Assembly: GCA_002687255.1 (NCBI GenBank)
Contig: NYZR01000013.1
Coordinates: 1 to 42,106 of the forward strand
Reading direction: 5' to 3'
Length of the DNA stretch: 42,106 nt
Origin: Candidatus Pacearchaeota archaeon
Lineage (GTDB): Archaea; Nanobdellota; Nanobdellia; Pacearchaeales; GW2011-AR1
The notes under the pieces were generated by a model, which was given only the letters and a program-made list of their open reading frames with translations, made no database searches and was not told the origin of the DNA. Numbering within the stretch: position 1 is the first letter of the stretch; each line of letters opens with the position of its first letter. Position numbers and translations under genes: made by a program. Below are positions 3,881-37,654 of this stretch, one piece after another.

Positions 3881-4495
3881 ATGAGAGCAGTTGGCACAGA
3901 AGCGCAGCTTGATCGGAGTAGAAAGCGGAATGGGATTATTATTAGTGTGTTGATGTTAGTGTTGTTGGTGGCTAGCTCTGTTGGGTTTGCTTTTCTTTCG
4001 AGTAATCATACGAGTGGTTCTCAGCAAGTTGCTGGGTCTGAGGGCGCTTATGAGGGTTCTGGTGTTGGGGGTTGGGTAGTTCCTGTTCTTGGTCGGGAAG
4101 TAAGGTTGACGTTTGGTCTTGAAGAAGTTGCTGAGATCCCTGTTGCTTTGACGACAGGTATAGAAGCGTATCAAGGGAAGACCTTGTATCTTGCGGTGGA
4201 GAATCCTGGGATCGAGGCAGAGTTGCGGAGCACTATTGGAGTCTTCACTGATCGGATTCAATTGGCTTGCTACGGGGAATGTGAGTTGGATTTGCCGGAG
4301 AAGGATTGTTCGGAGAACGTGATTGTCTGGACGGATGGCGTTGCCGAAGCAAGTTCGGCAGGCCCTCGCAGCTCGGACAAGGTGAACGCTGCTTCGGACG
4401 TTGGCGGGCAGGTGACGCAGGGAGAAGGGTGTGTGTTTATTGAAGGAGATTTAAGGGCTGTTGATGCTTTTCTTTATAAGGTGTTTGGTTACTAA
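3881..4495 (+). CDS. membrane-anchored hypothetical protein (possible class III/pilin-like signal KRNG-IIISVLMLVLLV) carrying an in-frame repeat insertion
   Basis: 204-aa ORF with a TATA at -25, an N-terminal TM segment and a Cys-containing ectodomain. Paralog of 4565..5209. Confidence 0.6.
   Translation: MRAVGTEAQLDRSRKRNGIIISVLMLVLLVASSVGFAFLSSNHTSGSQQVAGSEGAYEGSGVGGWVVPVLGREVRLTFGLEEVAEIPVALTTGIEAYQGKTLYLAVENPGIEAELRSTIGVFTDRIQLACYGECELDLPEKDCSENVIVWTDGVAEASSAGPRSSDKVNAASDVGGQVTQGEGCVFIEGDLRAVDAFLYKVFGY
4343..4399 (+). repeat. structured 57-nt repeat, copy E1 (in frame, 19 codons)
   Basis: GCCGAAGCAAGTTCGGCAGGCCCTCGCAGCTCGGACAAGGTGAACGCTGCTTCGGAC. Near-identical to 36926..36982, and its core is related to 27934..27998 and 12286..12320. 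Confidence 0.7.
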
Positions 4496-10979: not shown

Positions 10980-11130
10980 TTTATGTTGTAACTTTTCGAT
11001 TACACTTCTTTATAAAGATTTGTATACTTTGGTGCAATGGAAGATTTTTGTTATTCGATGTCAGGGGGTGTTTTATCGTCGGAAAATAAGGGAAGTGAAG
11101 GTTTAAATAGATGTTGATGCTCTGGTAGAT

Positions 11131-11825: not shown

Positions 11826-12227
11826 TTATTCTGCCGGTGTGCCTGAGCCGCCGATAAAATCAGTCTTTTCGGGTTTGTCTTGGGAGATGTGGGTCTTGTG
11901 GATTTCTGCGAATTGTGGGGTTGCGATGAGGGTGTTTTCTCCGAAGCCGGCGATGGATCCTGACATGGCGTCCACAGTCTTTTTGACTTTTGCTACGGCT
12001 CGCTTGAGTTCGATGACGTCTTTCTTTTTGAGGGGATTGATGTCTATGACTGCTATGGTGTAGCCGTCCCTTAATGCTGAGAGAACATGATTAGCGTCGT
12101 CGAAGTTTTTCAGAACAAATGGCTTGACTTGGACTTTGTTTTCCTCCTTGGGGGTGTTATTGACGTCTATCTCTAGGAACTCTTCTTCGTCGTCTTTCCC
12201 GAACATTTTTTTGAAATCGAAGGCCAT
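11826..12227 (-). CDS. sepF: SepF-like cell-division protein (FtsZ anchor)
   Basis: VKPFVLKNFDDANHVLSALRDGYTIAVIDINPLKKKDVIELKRAVAKVKKTVDAMSGSIAGFGENTLIATP matches the SepF/DUF552 core pattern. Confidence 0.7.
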   Translation of the reverse strand: MAFDFKKMFGKDDEEEFLEIDVNNTPKEENKVQVKPFVLKNFDDANHVLSALRDGYTIAVIDINPLKKKDVIELKRAVAKVKKTVDAMSGSIAGFGENTLIATPQFAEIHKTHISQDKPEKTDFIGGSGTPAE

Positions 12228-12250
12228 TAGATTTTTTGTTTTGGAATCTA

Positions 12251-12336
12251 TTTAAAGATTTGTGTGATGAACGCAAATCCTAGACTCTCGCCGCTCACAC
12301 CTCATGAGCGCAGCATCGAGTTTAAAGATTTGTGTG
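12251..12336 (+). repeat. repeat copy E2 (54-nt insert) flanked by a perfect 16-bp direct duplication TTTAAAGATTTGTGTG
   Basis: Identical 16-mers lie at 12251-12266 and 12321-12336. The insert at 12267-12320 ends with CTCGCCGCTCACACCTCATGAGCGCAGCATCGAG, which matches 30/34 with the core of 27934..27998. Confidence 0.6.
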
Positions 12337-12400
12337 GTCTGAGATAGGAAAGAGATTATTTATGCTTTTGGTTTGCTTTGATTACCATAATATTTAAGAA

Positions 12401-12706
12401 ATGCTGTTTCCCTTTGTTTGTATGGCAAGCGATCTAACTTGTGCGGCATGCGAAGGCATTATCTCTGGGGGATATGTTATTGTTGGGCGTGCTGGCAGTC
12501 GTTCAGATTCAGGAGAGGTGGTGTTACATGCAGAATCATTGAGAGAGGAGGCCGAGGAGGTTGCTGTTACTTTGAAAGCTATGGAGGATCCTGGGAGTTG
12601 TATTGGAAGGTATATTCATGAAGATGACAGGCGAAATCTTTATCATCCTGAGGTTGTTCATTTTGATAGAGTTGGAGTTGGGCAGGGAACAGAAAGGGTA
12701 GTTTAG
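12401..12706 (+). CDS. hypothetical protein (start uncertain; possibly MASDLTCAACEG at 12422)
   Basis: 101-aa ORF convergent with prefoldin and overlapping it by 4 nt. No family recognised. Confidence 0.35.
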   Translation: MLFPFVCMASDLTCAACEGIISGGYVIVGRAGSRSDSGEVVLHAESLREEAEEVAVTLKAMEDPGSCIGRYIHEDDRRNLYHPEVVHFDRVGVGQGTERVV

Positions 12707-13059
12707 TTTCTAGGCGGTCGTTCTTCTTTCTTCTCGTTTGTCTTTGCCATGGCTGCCTGGAGCTCATCTCTCAGCTTCGTTGCTTTTTCTGTGAGAAGTG
12801 CTTCTTGTTTTTCAATGGAAGAAAGTCGGAGGTCGGCGAGTTTCTTTTTTTCTTCTAGGTCTTTTTCTAGGGTGGCTTTGTCTGTTTTCAGCATGACATT
12901 GCCGAGGGTTTTGTAGACGTCGCCCTCTGCGCTTTTGAGTTCTTCTAAGGCGGTGTTGGTTTCGTTGAGTTCTAATTGCATTTGTTGTTTCTGCATCATG
13001 AAGCCTTGTAGCTGTTGTTCCGTGCTTTGCAATTGTTGGATAGTTTCTTGTTGTTCCAT
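12703..13059 (-). CDS. pfdB: prefoldin beta subunit
   Basis: 118-aa coiled-coil protein. LQGFMMQKQQMQLELNETNTALEELKSAEGDVYKTLGNVMLKTDK is typical. It sits in the conserved position downstream of rpoP. Confidence 0.8.
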   Translation of the reverse strand: MEQQETIQQLQSTEQQLQGFMMQKQQMQLELNETNTALEELKSAEGDVYKTLGNVMLKTDKATLEKDLEEKKKLADLRLSSIEKQEALLTEKATKLRDELQAAMAKTNEKKEERPPRN

Positions 13060-14462: not shown

Positions 14463-14864
14463 TTATCTAATCAGTTTTACGATCTGATCTAACAGGAGTC
14501 GGTCTCCTGGGATAAGTTTGAGCTCTTTTGTTTCAGAGAGGTTCATGAACACTGCATTCCCCTCCGTGGCGTTAATCATTTCCTTTCCTGGCAGGGGTGC
14601 TAAGAACATGTTCCTTTCTGCCATAAGGTTATACCCAGGGATCTCTGACTCTGTCTTTTTGAAGAAAGTGAAGTGTTGAAGATCGAGGCCTAGTTCTTCC
14701 ATTATCTCTCTTTTCAATGCTTGCTCTGGAGTCTCTCCTTTCTCGATGCCTCCTCCGAAGAATCCATACTCTTCGCCCCATTTGCTTATTTCTCTTCTGT
14801 CTTGTAAGAGGAGGTTACCTTTATTGTCGTGGAAAAGAACAAGAGCCACTCTTCGTTTTTTCAT
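14463..14864 (-). CDS. NUDIX hydrolase
   Basis: Nudix box GGGIEKGETPEQALKREIMEELGL. Start taken at MKKRRVALVLF (14864), 1 nt after the L11 stop. The longer track ORF is a K/R-rich read-through overlapping rpl11. Confidence 0.8.
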   Translation of the reverse strand: MKKRRVALVLFHDNKGNLLLQDRREISKWGEEYGFFGGGIEKGETPEQALKREIMEELGLDLQHFTFFKKTESEIPGYNLMAERNMFLAPLPGKEMINATEGNAVFMNLSETKELKLIPGDRLLLDQIVKLIR

Positions 14865-14865
14865 T

Positions 14866-15612
14866 TTATTCCTTCTTTTCTTCTGTTTTTGCATCAGCGT
14901 TTTCAGCTGGCGCCTCTCCTTCTGCAGGTGCTTCGCCTTCTGCCGGCGCTTCTCCATCGGCAGGAGCTTCAGCGCCATCTTCGCCTTCTGCTCCTTCGGC
15001 TGCCTTAGCGGCCTCCTTCGCCGCTGCTGCCTCCGCTTCTGCTGCTTCTTCCTCAGCCCTCTGTTTGTCTTGTGCCTTGGTGATCTTCTTGAATGCTGTG
15101 TCGAGTTTGGCTTTCTTTGTCGGATCCAGGTCTGTTTTTTCTGCGTTGATTTCTGTGTCAAAGTCTCCTTTGTCGATTGCTTTTTCTATGTCTGCTGCTG
15201 GTTTGCTTTCGATCAGAACGCCGAGGGAAACACAAGTGCCTACGACGGTTTTGACGGCTGCCTTGAGTGTTTTGTCTAAGAGATTAGGGAGTTTTGTTTT
15301 TGCGACGGCGATGACTTGCTCGATGGCGAGGTTGCCCACTTTATACTTGTGTGCTTCTGCTGATCCTTTTTCGAGTTTGAGTTCTTTCTTTACTAATTCA
15401 GATACTGGGGGAGAAGATACTGAGATTTCTACGGCTTTTGTGTCAGGATCTACGTCCAGGACGACGGGGACTTTCATTCCGGAGAATCCTTTTGTGGCTT
15501 CGTTGACGTCGGTGATTAATTGGCCGAGGTTGATACCTAAGGGGCCCAGCTGTTGTGCTACTGCCGGGCCGGGTTGCATCTTGCCGCCCTCAACAAGTAG
15601 TTTTACTTCCAT
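14866..15612 (-). CDS. rpl11: ribosomal protein L11 with a ~90-aa acidic/Ala-rich C-terminal extension
   Basis: MEVKLLVEGGKMQPGPAVAQQLGPLGINLGQLITDVNEATKGFSGMKVPVVLDV is canonical uL11. The protein is 248 aa, against roughly 160 for typical archaeal L11. Confidence 0.9.
   Translation of the reverse strand: MEVKLLVEGGKMQPGPAVAQQLGPLGINLGQLITDVNEATKGFSGMKVPVVLDVDPDTKAVEISVSSPPVSELVKKELKLEKGSAEAHKYKVGNLAIEQVIAVAKTKLPNLLDKTLKAAVKTVVGTCVSLGVLIESKPAADIEKAIDKGDFDTEINAEKTDLDPTKKAKLDTAFKKITKAQDKQRAEEEAAEAEAAAAKEAAKAAEGAEGEDGAEAPADGEAPAEGEAPAEGEAPAENADAKTEEKKE
14907..14978 (-). repeat. 18-nt coding tandem repeat (about 4 units, GEAPAE) in the L11 tail
   Basis: Units are gctggcgcctctccttct, gcaggtgcttcgccttct, gccggcgcttctccatcg and gcaggagcttcagcgcca. 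Together they encode APADGEAPAEGEAPAEGEAPAE. Confidence 0.7.
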
Positions 15613-17146: not shown

Positions 17147-17539
17147 TTACTGATTCTTAAGATCTTGTATCTCCTTGATCATTCCATCCAATCCGTGCTT
17201 CGCTACTTTCATTTCATCTATGTATCTTGCATCGTTTTCTTCTGCTATTCCTCTTGCGCTTTCTCTTGTAGAGAGCACCCAAATGTTTTTTGCTTCTGGA
17301 TCGCTTTGCCTGGTTTGCTTTATTGCTTCACCCACTAAGAGACTTGGGTTCTCTCCTGGTTTTTGGGGAAACTCTCCGTCTAGAAGATAGACTGTTGCTC
17401 TTGTGTCTTTTAGAAGTTCTTCAAATTCTTGCAAAGATCCAACTCCCCTATAGATTAGGGCTCTTCTACTCATTGCCTGCTCCACTGTGCCTCTAAGATC
17501 TTCAAGATCTTCGATGTGAATTACATCATAATGTTGCAT
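17147..17539 (-). CDS. stand-alone receiver (REC)-like domain protein (cassette gene 2)
   Basis: VIHIEDLEDL (acidic pocket), VYLLDGEFP (Asp57-equivalent) and IWVLSTRES (Thr/Ser position) fit a CheY-like fold. TTAAATAG lies about 25 nt upstream. Confidence 0.55.
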   Translation of the reverse strand: MQHYDVIHIEDLEDLRGTVEQAMSRRALIYRGVGSLQEFEELLKDTRATVYLLDGEFPQKPGENPSLLVGEAIKQTRQSDPEAKNIWVLSTRESARGIAEENDARYIDEMKVAKHGLDGMIKEIQDLKNQ

Positions 17540-17563
17540 CTTTCAGAGATTCTTGCAGCCTAT

Positions 17564-18025
17564 TTAAGAATTTGTGTGTTCTTCGTCGAGCTTCCCAAGA
17601 TACTCCTTGATTCTGCTGACAGTTTGAGGCAGCAAGAAGTTTTCTATTTTGGTTTCGAACAATTCGGAGAGGGGAGCGAATTCTGCTATTCGGTATTGGT
17701 TGTTGTGTTTGTCTACTAACATGGAGTCTCGGAGTCTTTTCAGCTGTCTTCTGATGTTGGATTCGGCTAGTCCTTTTTCGTCCAATGATTGTTCTTTTCG
17801 TTGGGTTTGGACTTGGTCACGGATTTGGAAGGAGGTGAGCCAGGTTTTGTTTTTTCTTGCTGCTTCTAAGACGTGGAGGATGTCGACCATGATGTCTCGT
17901 GAGTCTCCTGGTTGGAGGAGGCCTAATGATAAGCAGATTTTTCTCATAAGGTCTCTTGGCTGAGTGTCGTAGGGTTTTTCGTAGCGGCGGAGGGTGAGTT
18001 CGCCGAGGGGGGTTTCTTTTACCAT
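17564..18025 (-). CDS. archaeal wHTH transcription regulator (COG1318-like)
   Basis: LTLRRYEKPYD...ICLSLGLLQPGDSRDIMVDILHVL...SNIRRQLKRLRDSMLV is typical of a conserved archaeal HTH family. Confidence 0.65.
   Translation of the reverse strand: MVKETPLGELTLRRYEKPYDTQPRDLMRKICLSLGLLQPGDSRDIMVDILHVLEAARKNKTWLTSFQIRDQVQTQRKEQSLDEKGLAESNIRRQLKRLRDSMLVDKHNNQYRIAEFAPLSELFETKIENFLLPQTVSRIKEYLGKLDEEHTNS
17582..17629 (-). repeat. intact-gene copy (R2) of the duplicated regulator 3' end
   Basis: Partner of 16573..16620, and part of CDS 17564..18025. Confidence 0.7.
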
Positions 18026-21545: not shown

Positions 21546-22454
21546 TTATCCATCGAGATACTTCTCAACAATATACTGCACGAATTCCCTCTCGTCTTTT
21601 TCGATTTGGTAGAAGTCGAGGGCGTTGTAGTAGGCTTCGAGGTCGGTGACTGGGATGTCTATTGGAGGATAGTTTTTTTTCCAGAGGATCCAGTTCATGA
21701 GGAGTCGTGAGAGGCGGGAGTTGCCATCGACGAAGGGCTGGAGTGAGATGAGTTTTGCGTGCACGAGTGCGGCGAGTTCGAGCGGATGAAGTTTTCTCTG
21801 GTGTTGTGCATACCATGACAGAAATTGATCGAGTTCTTTTTCGACGTGTTGCCATTTGGGCGGCAGGTAAATCGTGCCTGCGATCTTCACGTCCCTCTTG
21901 AGTTCACTCCTGAATTTTCCGGCGATGCTGTCGTCTATCCCTGCGAGCAGTGTTTTGTGTAATTTTTTGAGGAAGGCTTTTGTGAGAGGGCCTATGTATT
22001 GGGTGATCATGAGAAACCCTTTCTCGTGGTTTTCGAGTTCTTTGGCGATGCGTAGCGATTTCATTTCCTTCGGGATGATCCCTTCCTTCAGGATGAGGAA
22101 TGTCTGTCTTAATGTGACTGGAACGCCGGAGAGTTTGCTACTGTCGTAGGTGTATCTGATCATGAACTCTTCTTGCTTTTGTTCTCTCTCGGTCTTGCTG
22201 AGTTTTTTGAGTTCCTTCTGGTATGTTTCCTTTTTGTTCTCTATGTTTTTGACTATGTCGTCAGATAGGTAACGATGATTGTCTTTTTTGATGTCGTTGA
22301 GAAATTCTTCTTTCATTTTTTTTAGGTCTTCTTCTGGTGGAAGGGTCTTGCCTATATACTTGCTCTTTTGTCTGATGTTCTTCCCCTCCCTTATGTTGTG
22401 GACGAGGATCCAATAGGATTTCCCTTTAGTTGTTATCTTTCTTGCAAAAACCAT
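21546..22454 (-). CDS. Fic/DOC family protein with a degenerate active-site motif (QPFVDGNSRLSR)
   Basis: The Fic core is recognisable. The start is set at MVFARK (22454), 26 nt from the TATA GTTTAAATAT. The canonical HPFxDGNGRxxR has His replaced by Gln and GNGR replaced by GNSR. Confidence 0.8.
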   Translation of the reverse strand: MVFARKITTKGKSYWILVHNIREGKNIRQKSKYIGKTLPPEEDLKKMKEEFLNDIKKDNHRYLSDDIVKNIENKKETYQKELKKLSKTEREQKQEEFMIRYTYDSSKLSGVPVTLRQTFLILKEGIIPKEMKSLRIAKELENHEKGFLMITQYIGPLTKAFLKKLHKTLLAGIDDSIAGKFRSELKRDVKIAGTIYLPPKWQHVEKELDQFLSWYAQHQRKLHPLELAALVHAKLISLQPFVDGNSRLSRLLMNWILWKKNYPPIDIPVTDLEAYYNALDFYQIEKDEREFVQYIVEKYLDG

Positions 22455-22490
22455 GGGAAAGTTATTCACTACAGATATTTAAACCTTTTG

Positions 22491-26841: not shown

Positions 26842-27948
26842 ATGGCCGAGGATGACGTTGTTGTTGAGTCACAAGAAGGGCCTCCGGCAGGGAGTGATAT
26901 CGATCAGGAATTGGAGAGTTTGTTGCAGCAGCAGAGCACTCGAGTGAAAGTGGTTGGGTGTGGTGGGGGTGGGGGCAACTGCGTAAGTCGGATGAAGGAG
27001 ATTGGTATTAAAGGGTGTGAGATTCTGGCCATTAATACGGATGCGCAGGACTTGTTGTATACGAATGTAGACGGGAAGATTCTTGTGGGGCGGGAGCTGA
27101 CAAGCGGTCTTGGAGCGGGGAGTAATCCGAAGATCGGAGAAGAGGCGGCTCGGGAGAGTGAGGCAGAGATTAAGAAGAAGTTGGCGAAGAGCGATATGGT
27201 CTTTATTACCTGCGGTTTGGGTGGAGGGACGGGCACCGGGGCGGCGCCGGTGGTTGCGGAGTTGGCGAAGAAAGGGGGGGCGTTGACGATTGGTGTAGTT
27301 ACCTTGCCGTTTACGGTTGAGGGGCAGAAGCGAATTGAGAACTCGCAGTATGGCCTGGATAAGATGGCTTCTACTTGTGATACCTTGATTGTGATTCCGA
27401 ATGATAAGTTGTTGGAGTTGGCTCCGGAGTTGCCCATTCATACGGCGTTTAAAGTGGCTGACGAGATTCTGACGAATGCGGTGAAGGGGATTACGGAGTT
27501 GATTACCAAGTCTGGTTTGGTGAATTTGGATTTTGCGGATGTGAAGGCGGTGATGTCTCATGGCGGCGTTTCTTTGATTGGTATTGGCGAGTCGGATACG
27601 CAGGAGCGGGCGAAGGATGCTGTGGATAAGGCGATTAACAATCCTTTACTTGATGTAGATATTTCTCAGGCTCAGGGGGCGTTGGTGAATATTATTGGAG
27701 GGAATGATATGTCGTTGGAAGAGTATAAGCAGGTGATGGAGGTGATCGGGACGAAGGTAGCGCCGGATGCGAAGTTGATTTCTGGGGCGCACATCTCGCC
27801 GGATTTGGAGAATACGATTAAGGTGTTGTTGATTGTGACTGGTGTAAAGAGTTCTCAGATTGTTGGGGCAGAGGATGGGATTGGGGTGAGTGAGACGCAG
27901 GCTTTGGAGAAGGAGTTGGGGATTGATTTCGTTGCCGATGATCGCTAG
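26842..27948 (+). CDS. ftsZ: cell division GTPase FtsZ
   Basis: GCGGGGGN, the tubulin signature [13 protein letters not shown], and NTDAQ. GGAAGGAG Shine-Dalgarno upstream. Confidence 0.95.
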
Positions 27949-27998
27949 GCGATCATCGGCTCCTCGCTGCTCACACCGCATGAGCGCAGCTTCGGATG
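27934..27998 (+). repeat. structured repeat copy E3 spanning the ftsZ stop codon
   Basis: GCCGATGATCGC-TAG-GCGATCATCGGC forms a perfect 12-bp stem with the stop codon in the loop. It is followed by TCCTCGCTGCTCACACCGCATGAGCGCAGCTTCGGATG, the core shared with E1, E2 and E4. Confidence 0.65.
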
Positions 27999-28015
27999 AT
28001 GACGACAGGTAAACC

Positions 28016-28450
28016 ATGAAAATAGAAGCACTTAACGAAGAAGGAATGAATCGCCTGAGATTGCTCGCCCAGTCTGAGTTGACATTAACGTTAGGTGCCA
28101 CGGAAGAGTTTCCTCATGTGCCTTCGTCATTGCTCCTGAGTTTTAGTGGGAGATATAGTCCTTATTTCTGCGGGGCTCTCCTTCCTGTTTTTTCTCTTGC
28201 TCCTGGCGATGAGCATCCTCTTGGGTATTCTTTTAGACAGAGGGTTGATACTCCTCTCCTAAGTAATGTTGTTGATTTCGTCTCCCCTCCCAATGGATCA
28301 GTCACTCGTATCTCTCTTTTTGCTGGACCATATGAACTCCATCGTCAGCAAGAGACCTTCCTTAAAAGAGGGATTGATTATGTTGAGATGTCTACAGAAG
28401 ACTATCTTGCTCTTGTGAGGGATTCAAGAGAGGGAGATGTTGCTGTTTGA
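28016..28450 (+). CDS. hypothetical protein co-transcribed with ftsZ
   Basis: 144-aa ORF with no TATA between it and ftsZ. No family recognised. Confidence 0.5.
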   Translation: MKIEALNEEGMNRLRLLAQSELTLTLGATEEFPHVPSSLLLSFSGRYSPYFCGALLPVFSLAPGDEHPLGYSFRQRVDTPLLSNVVDFVSPPNGSVTRISLFAGPYELHRQQETFLKRGIDYVEMSTEDYLALVRDSREGDVAV

Positions 28451-36892: not shown

Positions 36893-37654
36893 ATGTCGAG
36901 CGTTGTAAAGAAGATTTTTGACACTGCCGAAGCAAGTTCGGCAAGCCCTCGCAGCTCGGACTCTGTGAACGCTGCTTCAGATGGAGAAATTGATGAAGAG
37001 GTGCATGGGGCGTTGGTGAAATTTAGTAAGGGGTCTTTTCCGGATAGATGGTTAGTTGAGTCGAAGAAGCAGAAAGATAAGTGGGCGGTGAAGACGAGTG
37101 CGGAGTTTGCGAATTTTCTTGTTCGGGAATGTTTGCCTGCTGAGGGGAATGTGGAGGTGAAGGGTGTTGTTGTTTCTACGGAGAAGCTTGCTGATGTGTT
37201 GGATTTGCCTGTGGAGCGGGTGAAGCAGTTTATGGGAATCAAGCAGAATATTATTTCTGGGGAGATTGAAGTTGAGAAGATTCGGGAGGCTATGGAGAAA
37301 TACCCTCGGGCGTTTTTTGCGTTGTCGTTTTCTACGGATGATTGTGTCTTGAAGATCAAAGCAAAGGCACCGAAGAGTGCGAAGCCGAGCACGAAGGGCG
37401 ATAAGGAAGTGAAGATTGATTTTTGTTCGGTGAAGACGACTAACGAAGAGTTGGTGAGGGATTTGTTGTTCGATTGTCTTGCTGCGAAGCACGTGAGGGT
37501 GTCACATGAGTTTGTTATTTCTGAGATTGAGTTGCCTGCTGGTGTTGAGGATCCTGTGGAGATTCGAGAGAGGGCTGTTCGGAAGGGTGTGTTGAAGCGG
37601 ACTGTTGTTGCTGATGGTGCTGAGAAGCAGAGTGAAGCAGAGTTTGCTGCTTAG
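36893..37654 (+). CDS. hypothetical protein carrying repeat copy E4 near its N-terminus
   Basis: ATG lies about 25 nt downstream of GTTTTATAAAG. The 253-aa ORF has no recognised family. Confidence 0.55.
   Translation: MSSVVKKIFDTAEASSASPRSSDSVNAASDGEIDEEVHGALVKFSKGSFPDRWLVESKKQKDKWAVKTSAEFANFLVRECLPAEGNVEVKGVVVSTEKLADVLDLPVERVKQFMGIKQNIISGEIEVEKIREAMEKYPRAFFALSFSTDDCVLKIKAKAPKSAKPSTKGDKEVKIDFCSVKTTNEELVRDLLFDCLAAKHVRVSHEFVISEIELPAGVEDPVEIRERAVRKGVLKRTVVADGAEKQSEAEFAA
36926..36982 (+). repeat. structured 57-nt repeat, copy E4 (in frame, 19 codons)
   Basis: GCCGAAGCAAGTTCGGCAAGCCCTCGCAGCTCGGACTCTGTGAACGCTGCTTCAGAT. Encodes AEASSASPRSSDSVNAASD, against AEASSAGPRSSDKVNAASD in E1. Confidence 0.7.

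Follow-up and report, generated by a model that had tools for sequence, protein, structure and literature searches.

A short palindromic element probably inserted, with a 16-bp target duplication, into the sepF core promoter of a marine Pacearchaeota-like DPANN archaeon

The question raised by the sepF locus is how a perfect 16-nt direct repeat came to bracket a 54-nt segment immediately upstream of the gene. The DNA analysed here (the window, 42,106 nt in full) belongs to an uncultured marine DPANN archaeon. Its SepF and FtsZ have their best matches among proteins labelled Candidatus Pacearchaeota or Nanoarchaeota, and identical contigs are present in a number of seawater assemblies, several of TARA Oceans among them. 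The sequence TTTAAAGATTTGTGTG is present in two exact copies on the plus strand, at 12251-12266 and 12321-12336, with starts 70 nt apart; these coordinates, taken from a preliminary description of the locus, were reproduced. The explanation favored here, with moderate confidence, is that the intervening DNA, E2, is a copy of a dispersed repeat family (E) that was inserted into the sepF core promoter of this Pacearchaeota-like archaeon with duplication of a 16-bp target. The features of the locus that bear on this reading are the following:

11826-12227, minus strand: sepF gene, 133 aa (Pfam SepF, E=2.6e-9).
12251-12266, minus strand: proximal 16-mer, reading CACACAAATCTTTAAA on the sepF strand; together with 12249-12250 it makes the sepF BRE/TATA promoter AAATCTTTAAATA (12261-12249).
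12267-12286, plus strand: 5' segment of E2, holding ACGCAAATCCT (12271-12281), which pairs with AAGATTTGTGT (12255-12265) around a GATGA loop.
12287-12320, plus strand: core of E2, a 3' hairpin conserved throughout the E family, CTCGCNGCTC..TGA.CGCNGC.TC, scored at 51.5 bits by covariance model R1.
12321-12336, minus strand: distal 16-mer, identical to the promoter target that it duplicates, with a TATA reading TTTAAACT and two mismatches to the promoter consensus.

The pair of 16-mers is the longest exact short-range direct repeat of the 42-kb window, the runners-up reaching 13 nt. When up to two mismatches are allowed, the 16-mer has four matches in the window against 0.05 expected, a number reached by none of 100 shuffles, and a left/right direct repeat of 16 nt flanking E2 was obtained in none of 2000 shuffles. 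Both ends of the 54-nt insert (12267-12320) are directly abutted by a 16-mer, as a target duplication would be.

The duplicated sequence coincides with a promoter motif that recurs throughout the window. A window scan yields the consensus AAA[TG][CG]TTTA[TA]A[TA]A before many genes, with the ATG 21-23 nt downstream (examples at 11021, 12261, 13235, 17573, 20715, 22488, 23334 and 34555), and this motif is, as judged from sequence, the BRE/TATA promoter of leaderless genes. No mismatch to the consensus is present in the proximal copy, whose 13-nt motif is separated from the sepF ATG by 21 nt; the TATA element occupies 12249-12256 on the minus strand and the ATG starts at 12227. SepF homologues number more than 1000 in Pacearchaeota/Nanoarchaeota metagenomes, and an extended motif, ACA[GC][CA]AAT[AC]TTTATA..., lies at equal distance before sepF in most of 77 related loci. 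Owing to the consensus match, the standard ATG spacing and the conservation in relatives, the earlier assignment of the sepF TATA box to the duplicated target is confirmed. The proximal copy would thus be the working sepF promoter and the sepF mRNA is probably leaderless; with this promoter intact, expression of sepF has probably been preserved. A further sequence, CACACAAATTCTTAAATA (17561-17578), matches the sepF 16-mer at 14/16 positions and precedes an unrelated 130-aa gene (17147-17539, minus strand) for which no Pfam match is found, the ATG of which also lies 21 nt past the 13-nt promoter motif. The CACACAAAT extension common to the two promoters may be a regulator site.

The most direct evidence for insertion comes from the relatives. 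All six contigs that encode the identical SepF have the same sequence over whatever part of the region each covers, and E2 with both 16-mers is identical in all assemblies and runs covering it. The closest relatives are two loci (L007 and L008; SepF 89% identical) that carry one copy of the promoter motif, diverged from the window 16-mer at 3 of 16 positions, and lack exactly 70 nt (54 + 16) including the insert. In both, prefoldin is followed by a 66-nt spacer and then by sepF, and the alignment is clean on either side of the 70-nt gap: the relative reads ...ttctagCATATAAATCTTTATATAgcaaac...ATG, whereas the window reads ...ctcagacCACACAAATCTTTAAA, the 54-nt E2 on the reverse strand, and CACACAAATCTTTAAATAgattcc...ATG. 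The proximal copy runs on into sepF and the distal copy into ancestral upstream sequence, with 12337-12374 aligning to the L007 spacer and prefoldin gene end. The single motif copy and the exact 70-nt gap argue for insertion with a 16-bp target duplication, as had been proposed for the flanking repeat, and the uninterrupted site that the preliminary description suggested looking for is therefore present in L007 and L008. Minority variants with an empty site were not seen in the Logan contigs of six runs (X1-X4, X6, X7), a search covering contigs only, at a depth of 3-7x.

The same alignment bears on two other readings of the repeat. A simple local tandem duplication with a 70-nt period, generated by slippage and followed by divergence, would account for the short period and the perfect repeat ends, but it is extremely improbable, because no more than 16 nt of the 70-nt period recur, the remaining 54 nt being part of a dispersed family that has members as far as ~25 kb away, and because what would be the second "unit" is ancestral flanking sequence, alignable with L007. 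No array is found by TRF at this position, and the longer tandem array whose presence in relatives had been raised earlier as a possible counter-indication is not seen there, TRF again reporting nothing. The two 16-mers might instead be independently maintained promoters or operators, kept identical by selection or gene conversion. The strong conservation of the extended sepF motif across the clade speaks for such a reading, as does the 14/16 version with equal spacing at the unrelated gene 17147-17539. It is nevertheless very unlikely, given that separate promoter instances in the window share at most 14/16 positions, that the nearest relatives have a single copy while the second one coincides exactly with the insert, that the distal TATA is truncated by the insert junction, and that two spaced copies without E2 occur in none of the 77 relatives.

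Insertion with target duplication would leave two direct copies of the promoter element. The distal TATA reads TTTAAACT and not TTTAAATA, because its final two bases derive from E2. If the distal copy were active, transcription would start near 12296, within E2, and give a sepF leader of ~70 nt. The idea that each side of this divergent intergenic region gained its own copy of the promoter element does not hold, since the 16-mers are direct repeats that both face sepF and the divergent gene has its own promoter. The features on that side are these:

12354-12374, minus strand: relic of the ancestral prefoldin 3' end with its stop codon (aaaccaaaagcaTAAataatc), now non-coding; the same string ends prefoldin in L007 and L008.
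About 12385-12399, plus strand: BRE/TATA-like promoter ccataATATTTAAGA, read from sequence, of the divergent 94-aa orphan gene (ATG at 12422).
12422-12706, plus strand: 94-aa orphan ORF, called as a gene on four of the six contigs bearing this sepF (L001-L004).

The promoter of the divergent gene, ATATTTAAGA, ends 22 nt before the ATG at 12422, in the geometry seen at other promoters of the window, and the distal 16-mer lies 86 nt from that ATG and is oriented away from the direction of the gene. The orphan ORF has no tblastn match in any relative locus. It sits in a ~370-nt block that is inserted in the prefoldin 3' end and is missing from all relatives, in which prefoldin directly abuts the sepF promoter. 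This block (within 12354-12750) gives prefoldin a new C-terminus and is flanked by ATGGCAAAG (12742-12750) and ATGGtaatCAAAG (12376-12388), in minus-strand reading. An integron attC-like cassette boundary was considered for E and rejected, as E1 and E4 lie in frame within genes and ancestral spacer separates E2 from the block with the 94-aa ORF.

Within the insert, the 3' part matches the core of E3, as the preliminary description had noted, with a score of 29/34 (12287-12320 versus 27963-27996) rather than the 30/34 given there. The whole layout is 16-mer, GATGA loop, inverted ACGCAAATCCT, core and again 16-mer. In the stem formed by ACGCAAATCCT and AAGATTTGTGT, 9 of 11 positions are paired, and 24 of 3000 shuffles give an equally good stem (p ~0.008). 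The 5' segment also resembles, by eye, the E1-type 5' segment CGAAGCAAGTTC (10/13, with one gap). Unlike E1 and E4, E2 has no recognisable terminal inverted repeats, and it is best described, from its sequence, as a somewhat degenerate copy of the family.

It is hardly credible that E2 is instead a small RNA gene, for example of C/D-box-like type, with the 16-mer as its promoter. GUGAUGA (12262-12268) and CUGA (12340-12343) do flank E2, and the palindromic TATA core makes rightward transcription conceivable. Against this, Rfam returns nothing at E<0.5 and only weak sub-threshold matches, the box spacing is wrong, inspection reveals neither a D'/C' pair at 12-nt guide distances nor a terminal stem, and E1 and E4 are located inside ORFs. 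The only RNA genes of the window are two tRNAs (Rfam, ARAGORN), and Rfam contains no match for the element. Two further structural candidates were discarded: the core lacks the tandem G-A pairs of a K-turn, and no pairing of exon flanks that would form a bulge-helix-bulge intron removing E1 was found on inspection.

The family to which E2 belongs is recognised by the core pattern CTCGCNGCTCNNACNNNNTGANCGCNGCNTC, which has four matches in the window (4365, 12287, 27963 and 36948), all on the plus strand, with 0 expected. E units are 54-62 nt long and have two parts, a 5' hairpin segment that varies among copies and, after it, a conserved 3' hairpin core of 34 nt. The core is built of a 5-bp GCWGC/GCWGC stem, then a 2-nt bulge, then a 3-bp stem. 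Covariation in the core amounts to one compensatory pair (A-U to U-A) between subfamilies, which is not significant with four sequences. The 5' ~20 nt form, or contribute to, a second hairpin, with a sequence that is not the same in all copies. The hairpin TGCCGAA-GCAAG-TTCGGCA is shared by E1, E4 and three copies from outside the window (F, G and J), and E3, E2 and the additional copies H and I each have their own. At least five further copies (F-J) were found with E1- and E3-type queries on Logan contigs, at equally low depth and in the same metagenomes (runs X1-X4, X6 and X9). Copy G occurs with two diverged versions of its flank, which suggests that the family is common to more than one strain or lineage. 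In copies G and J, the right flank starts with CTTCG, a repeat of the element's own 3' end.

The distribution of the family beyond these metagenomes is narrow. No copy was detected by the core covariance model in ~0.55 Mb of DNA from relatives, the strict core pattern yields 12 bacterial matches, attributable to chance only, among 185,579 GTDB species genomes, and it has no match in IMG/VR. Transposase, reverse transcriptase, integrase and RAYT/Y1 domains are absent from the ~40 ORFs of the window. On these sequence features the E family is a new, non-autonomous and lineage-specific palindromic insertion element, confined to a single lineage of marine DPANN archaea. The four copies in the window all point the same way and lie on the strand with strong G>C and T>A skew, an arrangement compatible with a single-strand-based mechanism, with n=4 only. 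Strand asymmetry extends across the whole window regardless of gene orientation, with a GC skew of +0.06 to +0.34 and T>A.

The preliminary description regarded E2 as the sole direct evidence in the window that the family is, or was, mobile. This is too restrictive, as the in-frame insertions E1 and E4 and the absence of E3 from a relative demonstrate mobility independently. The three other window copies are as follows:

4340-4399, plus strand: E1, 60 nt, 20 codons in frame within the gene of a conserved 204-aa protein, with the element proper at 4342-4398.
27934-27996, plus strand: E3, with a perfect 12-bp hairpin at 27934-27960 that has the ftsZ stop TAG in its loop, and the core at 27963-27996.
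36923-36982, plus strand: E4, 60 nt, in frame as codons 10-29 in the gene of a conserved 253-aa protein, with the element proper at 36925-36981.

The 20 residues encoded by E1 are missing from all nine homologues of relatives, and those of E4 from all ten homologues aligned. Both elements are read in the same frame, giving the Ser/Ala-rich peptide AEASSxxPRSSDxVNAASD in unrelated host proteins, and both end in 8-bp terminal inverted repeats (CCGAAGCA/TGCTTCGG), which are only partial in E3. At ftsZ, a relative (L105-L107; FtsZ 96% identical) lacks the ~61 nt found in the window at 27934-27994; its ftsZ ends ...GTGGATGATGATAGGTAA and is followed by a 30-nt spacer. In the window, E3 supplies a new acidic ftsZ tail, GCC GAT GAT CGC TAG, and the old tail with its TAA stop, GATGATGACGACAGGTAA, persists as a non-coding relic at 27995-28012, just before the ATG of the next gene at 28016. 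FtsZ tails beyond ELGIDF[VL] vary among relatives and are short and acidic, which makes it plausible that the new tail is tolerated. At the sepF promoter, the ftsZ 3' end and the two conserved proteins alike, the host reading frames are left open. The gene content from ftsZ to ribosomal protein L1 differs between the window and L105.

Several other features of the window were recorded. A 61-nt direct repeat (21478-21538/22491-22551; 90% identical, 1013 nt apart) brackets a gene with a Fic/DOC domain (21546-22469, minus strand). A 47-nt direct repeat (16574-16620/17583-17629; 85% identical, 1009 nt apart) lies in or beside small ORFs without a Pfam match, which may be paralogous genes. At its C-terminus, ribosomal protein L11 (14866-15612, minus strand) is extended by ~110 aa that are rich in Ala, Glu and Lys and include GEAPAE repeats. 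The listed NUDIX ORF (14463-15161) overlaps L11 with its upstream part, in another frame, so that the true NUDIX start is probably further downstream.

The flanking duplications differ considerably among copies of the family. The flanking repeats of E1 (5 nt, CGTTG), E3 (5-6 nt, GATGA) and E4 (≤2 nt) are within chance; the apparent GATGAT duplication at E3 shrinks to ~4 nt after conserved element bases are discounted and is not significant. No duplication is visible in the 30-nt flanks of copies H and J. Copy I is situated at another TATA-box promoter, with flanks that read AGTTTTATAAAGCTTC-CTGC-GAAGCTTTAA-[core]-TATAAAGCATTC. Here TATAAAGC is duplicated on both sides over 8 bp (11/12 with one indel), in the same geometry as at E2, and an inverted copy of the target forms a 9-bp hairpin with the left copy. 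The expectation that other family members would also show flanking duplications is thus borne out by copy I, with a different length, and not by E1, E3, E4, H or J. Taken as a family-wide signature, a 16-bp duplication must be given up: the lengths are 16 (E2) and 8 (I), the others being no more than 5-6 nt and at chance level. The E2 duplication is an outlier, because the flanks of E1, E3 and E4 are no better than chance, and the variation between copies means that a fixed-stagger transposase footprint is not supported.

The layout of copy I also bears on the most substantial alternative, in which the sepF promoter was already palindromic and the core together with the second direct copy was added in one complex template-switch event of replication or repair, the outcome being a direct-inverted-direct triplication of the target around the core. 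Inverted promoter copies are indeed found upstream of sepF in relatives without an E element, namely L009 (13-bp stem), L090 (11 bp), L080 (11 bp) and L046 (10 bp), and part of the E2 insert could accordingly be ancestral. The pairing of the E2 5' segment with the proximal 16-mer (9/11, p ~0.008) is in line with such an event, and the order target, loop, inverted target, core, target recurs in copy I, which has a sequence of its own and lies at another promoter. However, an extra loss would be needed, given that an inverted copy is missing from L007 and L008, the closest relatives, the 5' segment also aligns with the E1-type segment and may simply be element sequence, and the E3 hairpin is wholly absent from the close relative L105, which indicates that there it arrived with the element. 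On balance this reading is unlikely, although it is the strongest of the alternatives. The palindromic sepF promoter of the E-less relatives (L009 650-740, L090, L080 and L046), for example TAAAGATTTGTGT-8 nt-ACACAAATCTTTA, may itself be an operator or a bidirectional promoter.

Insertion of an E-family element with target duplication, the preferred reading, can be formulated as a sequence of steps. E2 would have entered the extended BRE/TATA element of sepF, the 16-bp target being duplicated, so as to leave one intact promoter copy at the normal distance from the leaderless sepF start and a second copy, with a slightly spoiled TATA, displaced 70 nt upstream. The duplication may have arisen when a staggered or resected break was repaired, or by template switching during replication, and the insertion process would be one whose duplications vary in length. 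Long duplications are seen at promoters only and exact 60-nt insertions in genes only, presumably because only promoter- or frame-preserving events survived: at a promoter, the survivors would be events that regenerated an intact BRE/TATA beside the gene, and within genes those whose length is a multiple of three. The variable duplication lengths, together with the copy-specific 5' hairpins, hint at something other than a standard transposase reaction. A more specific and quite unlikely proposal is that E is a new kind of element, namely a transposase-less DPANN element that builds its hairpin from the target itself, in the order target, loop, inverted target, core, target. If so, direct-inverted-direct triplication by fold-back/template-switch synthesis would generate duplications that differ in length and could duplicate entire promoters, those of sepF and of copy I being examples. 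The genomes of DPANN archaea are tiny and streamlined, and their mobile DNA is poorly known; the E family provides a naturally occurring example of how archaeal promoters can be remodelled by very short palindromic insertions, through BRE/TATA duplication, and of how such insertions can add peptide segments to proteins.

Target duplications that differ in length among copies, and that may be longer than 10 bp, are a feature of the IS1634/IS1549 group of IS4 and of the target-primed insertion of LINE/SINE elements, in which they are made by large autonomous elements or by reverse transcriptase. E would resemble these systems in the variability of its duplications and differ from them in that neither an autonomous element nor a reverse transcriptase was found in the window.

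REPs are described in PMC3733652 as extragenic sequences of 20-40 nt with a GTAG or CGTC head. Like REP/BIME sequences (RAYT, IS200/IS605-like), E forms imperfect hairpins with a conserved bulge, and its single orientation would fit single-strand mobilisation. Measured against that description, E falls outside the group: inspection reveals no GTAG/CGTC head, two of the four copies are intragenic, and the window contains no RAYT gene.

Closer parallels are provided by two further groups. Prokaryotic MITEs such as the Neisseria Correia element are frequently adjacent to promoters, with possible effects on transcription (PMC10969869). E shares with them small size, multiple copies and the lack of an encoded transposase, as well as terminal inverted repeats in E1 and E4. 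It departs from them in that Correia and classical MITEs duplicate their target over a fixed length and retain terminal inverted repeats at both ends, whereas the duplications of E measure 16, 8 and ≤5 nt and E2 has no such repeats. No cognate parent IS with matching ends is seen in the window, whose ~40 ORFs contain no transposase domain.

Rickettsia palindromic elements (RPEs) are short palindromic repeats found in frame in unrelated protein genes, where a peptide is added and the protein is kept (PMC10969869). E1 and E4 resemble them in their in-frame peptide insertion, evident from the 9 of 9 and 10 of 10 homologues without the peptide, and both families are non-autonomous and lineage-restricted. 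RPEs, in contrast, are ~100-150 bp long, bacterial and organised in defined sequence families, whereas E is 55-60 nt long, archaeal (DPANN) and unrelated in sequence, so that it matches RPEs neither in family nor in size nor in a Rickettsia host; it also differs by sitting in promoters and at gene ends and by its variable 5' hairpin. Collectively, these comparisons suggest that E would work most like RPEs, where it inserts in frame, and most like promoter-proximal MITEs such as Correia, where it lies beside a promoter.
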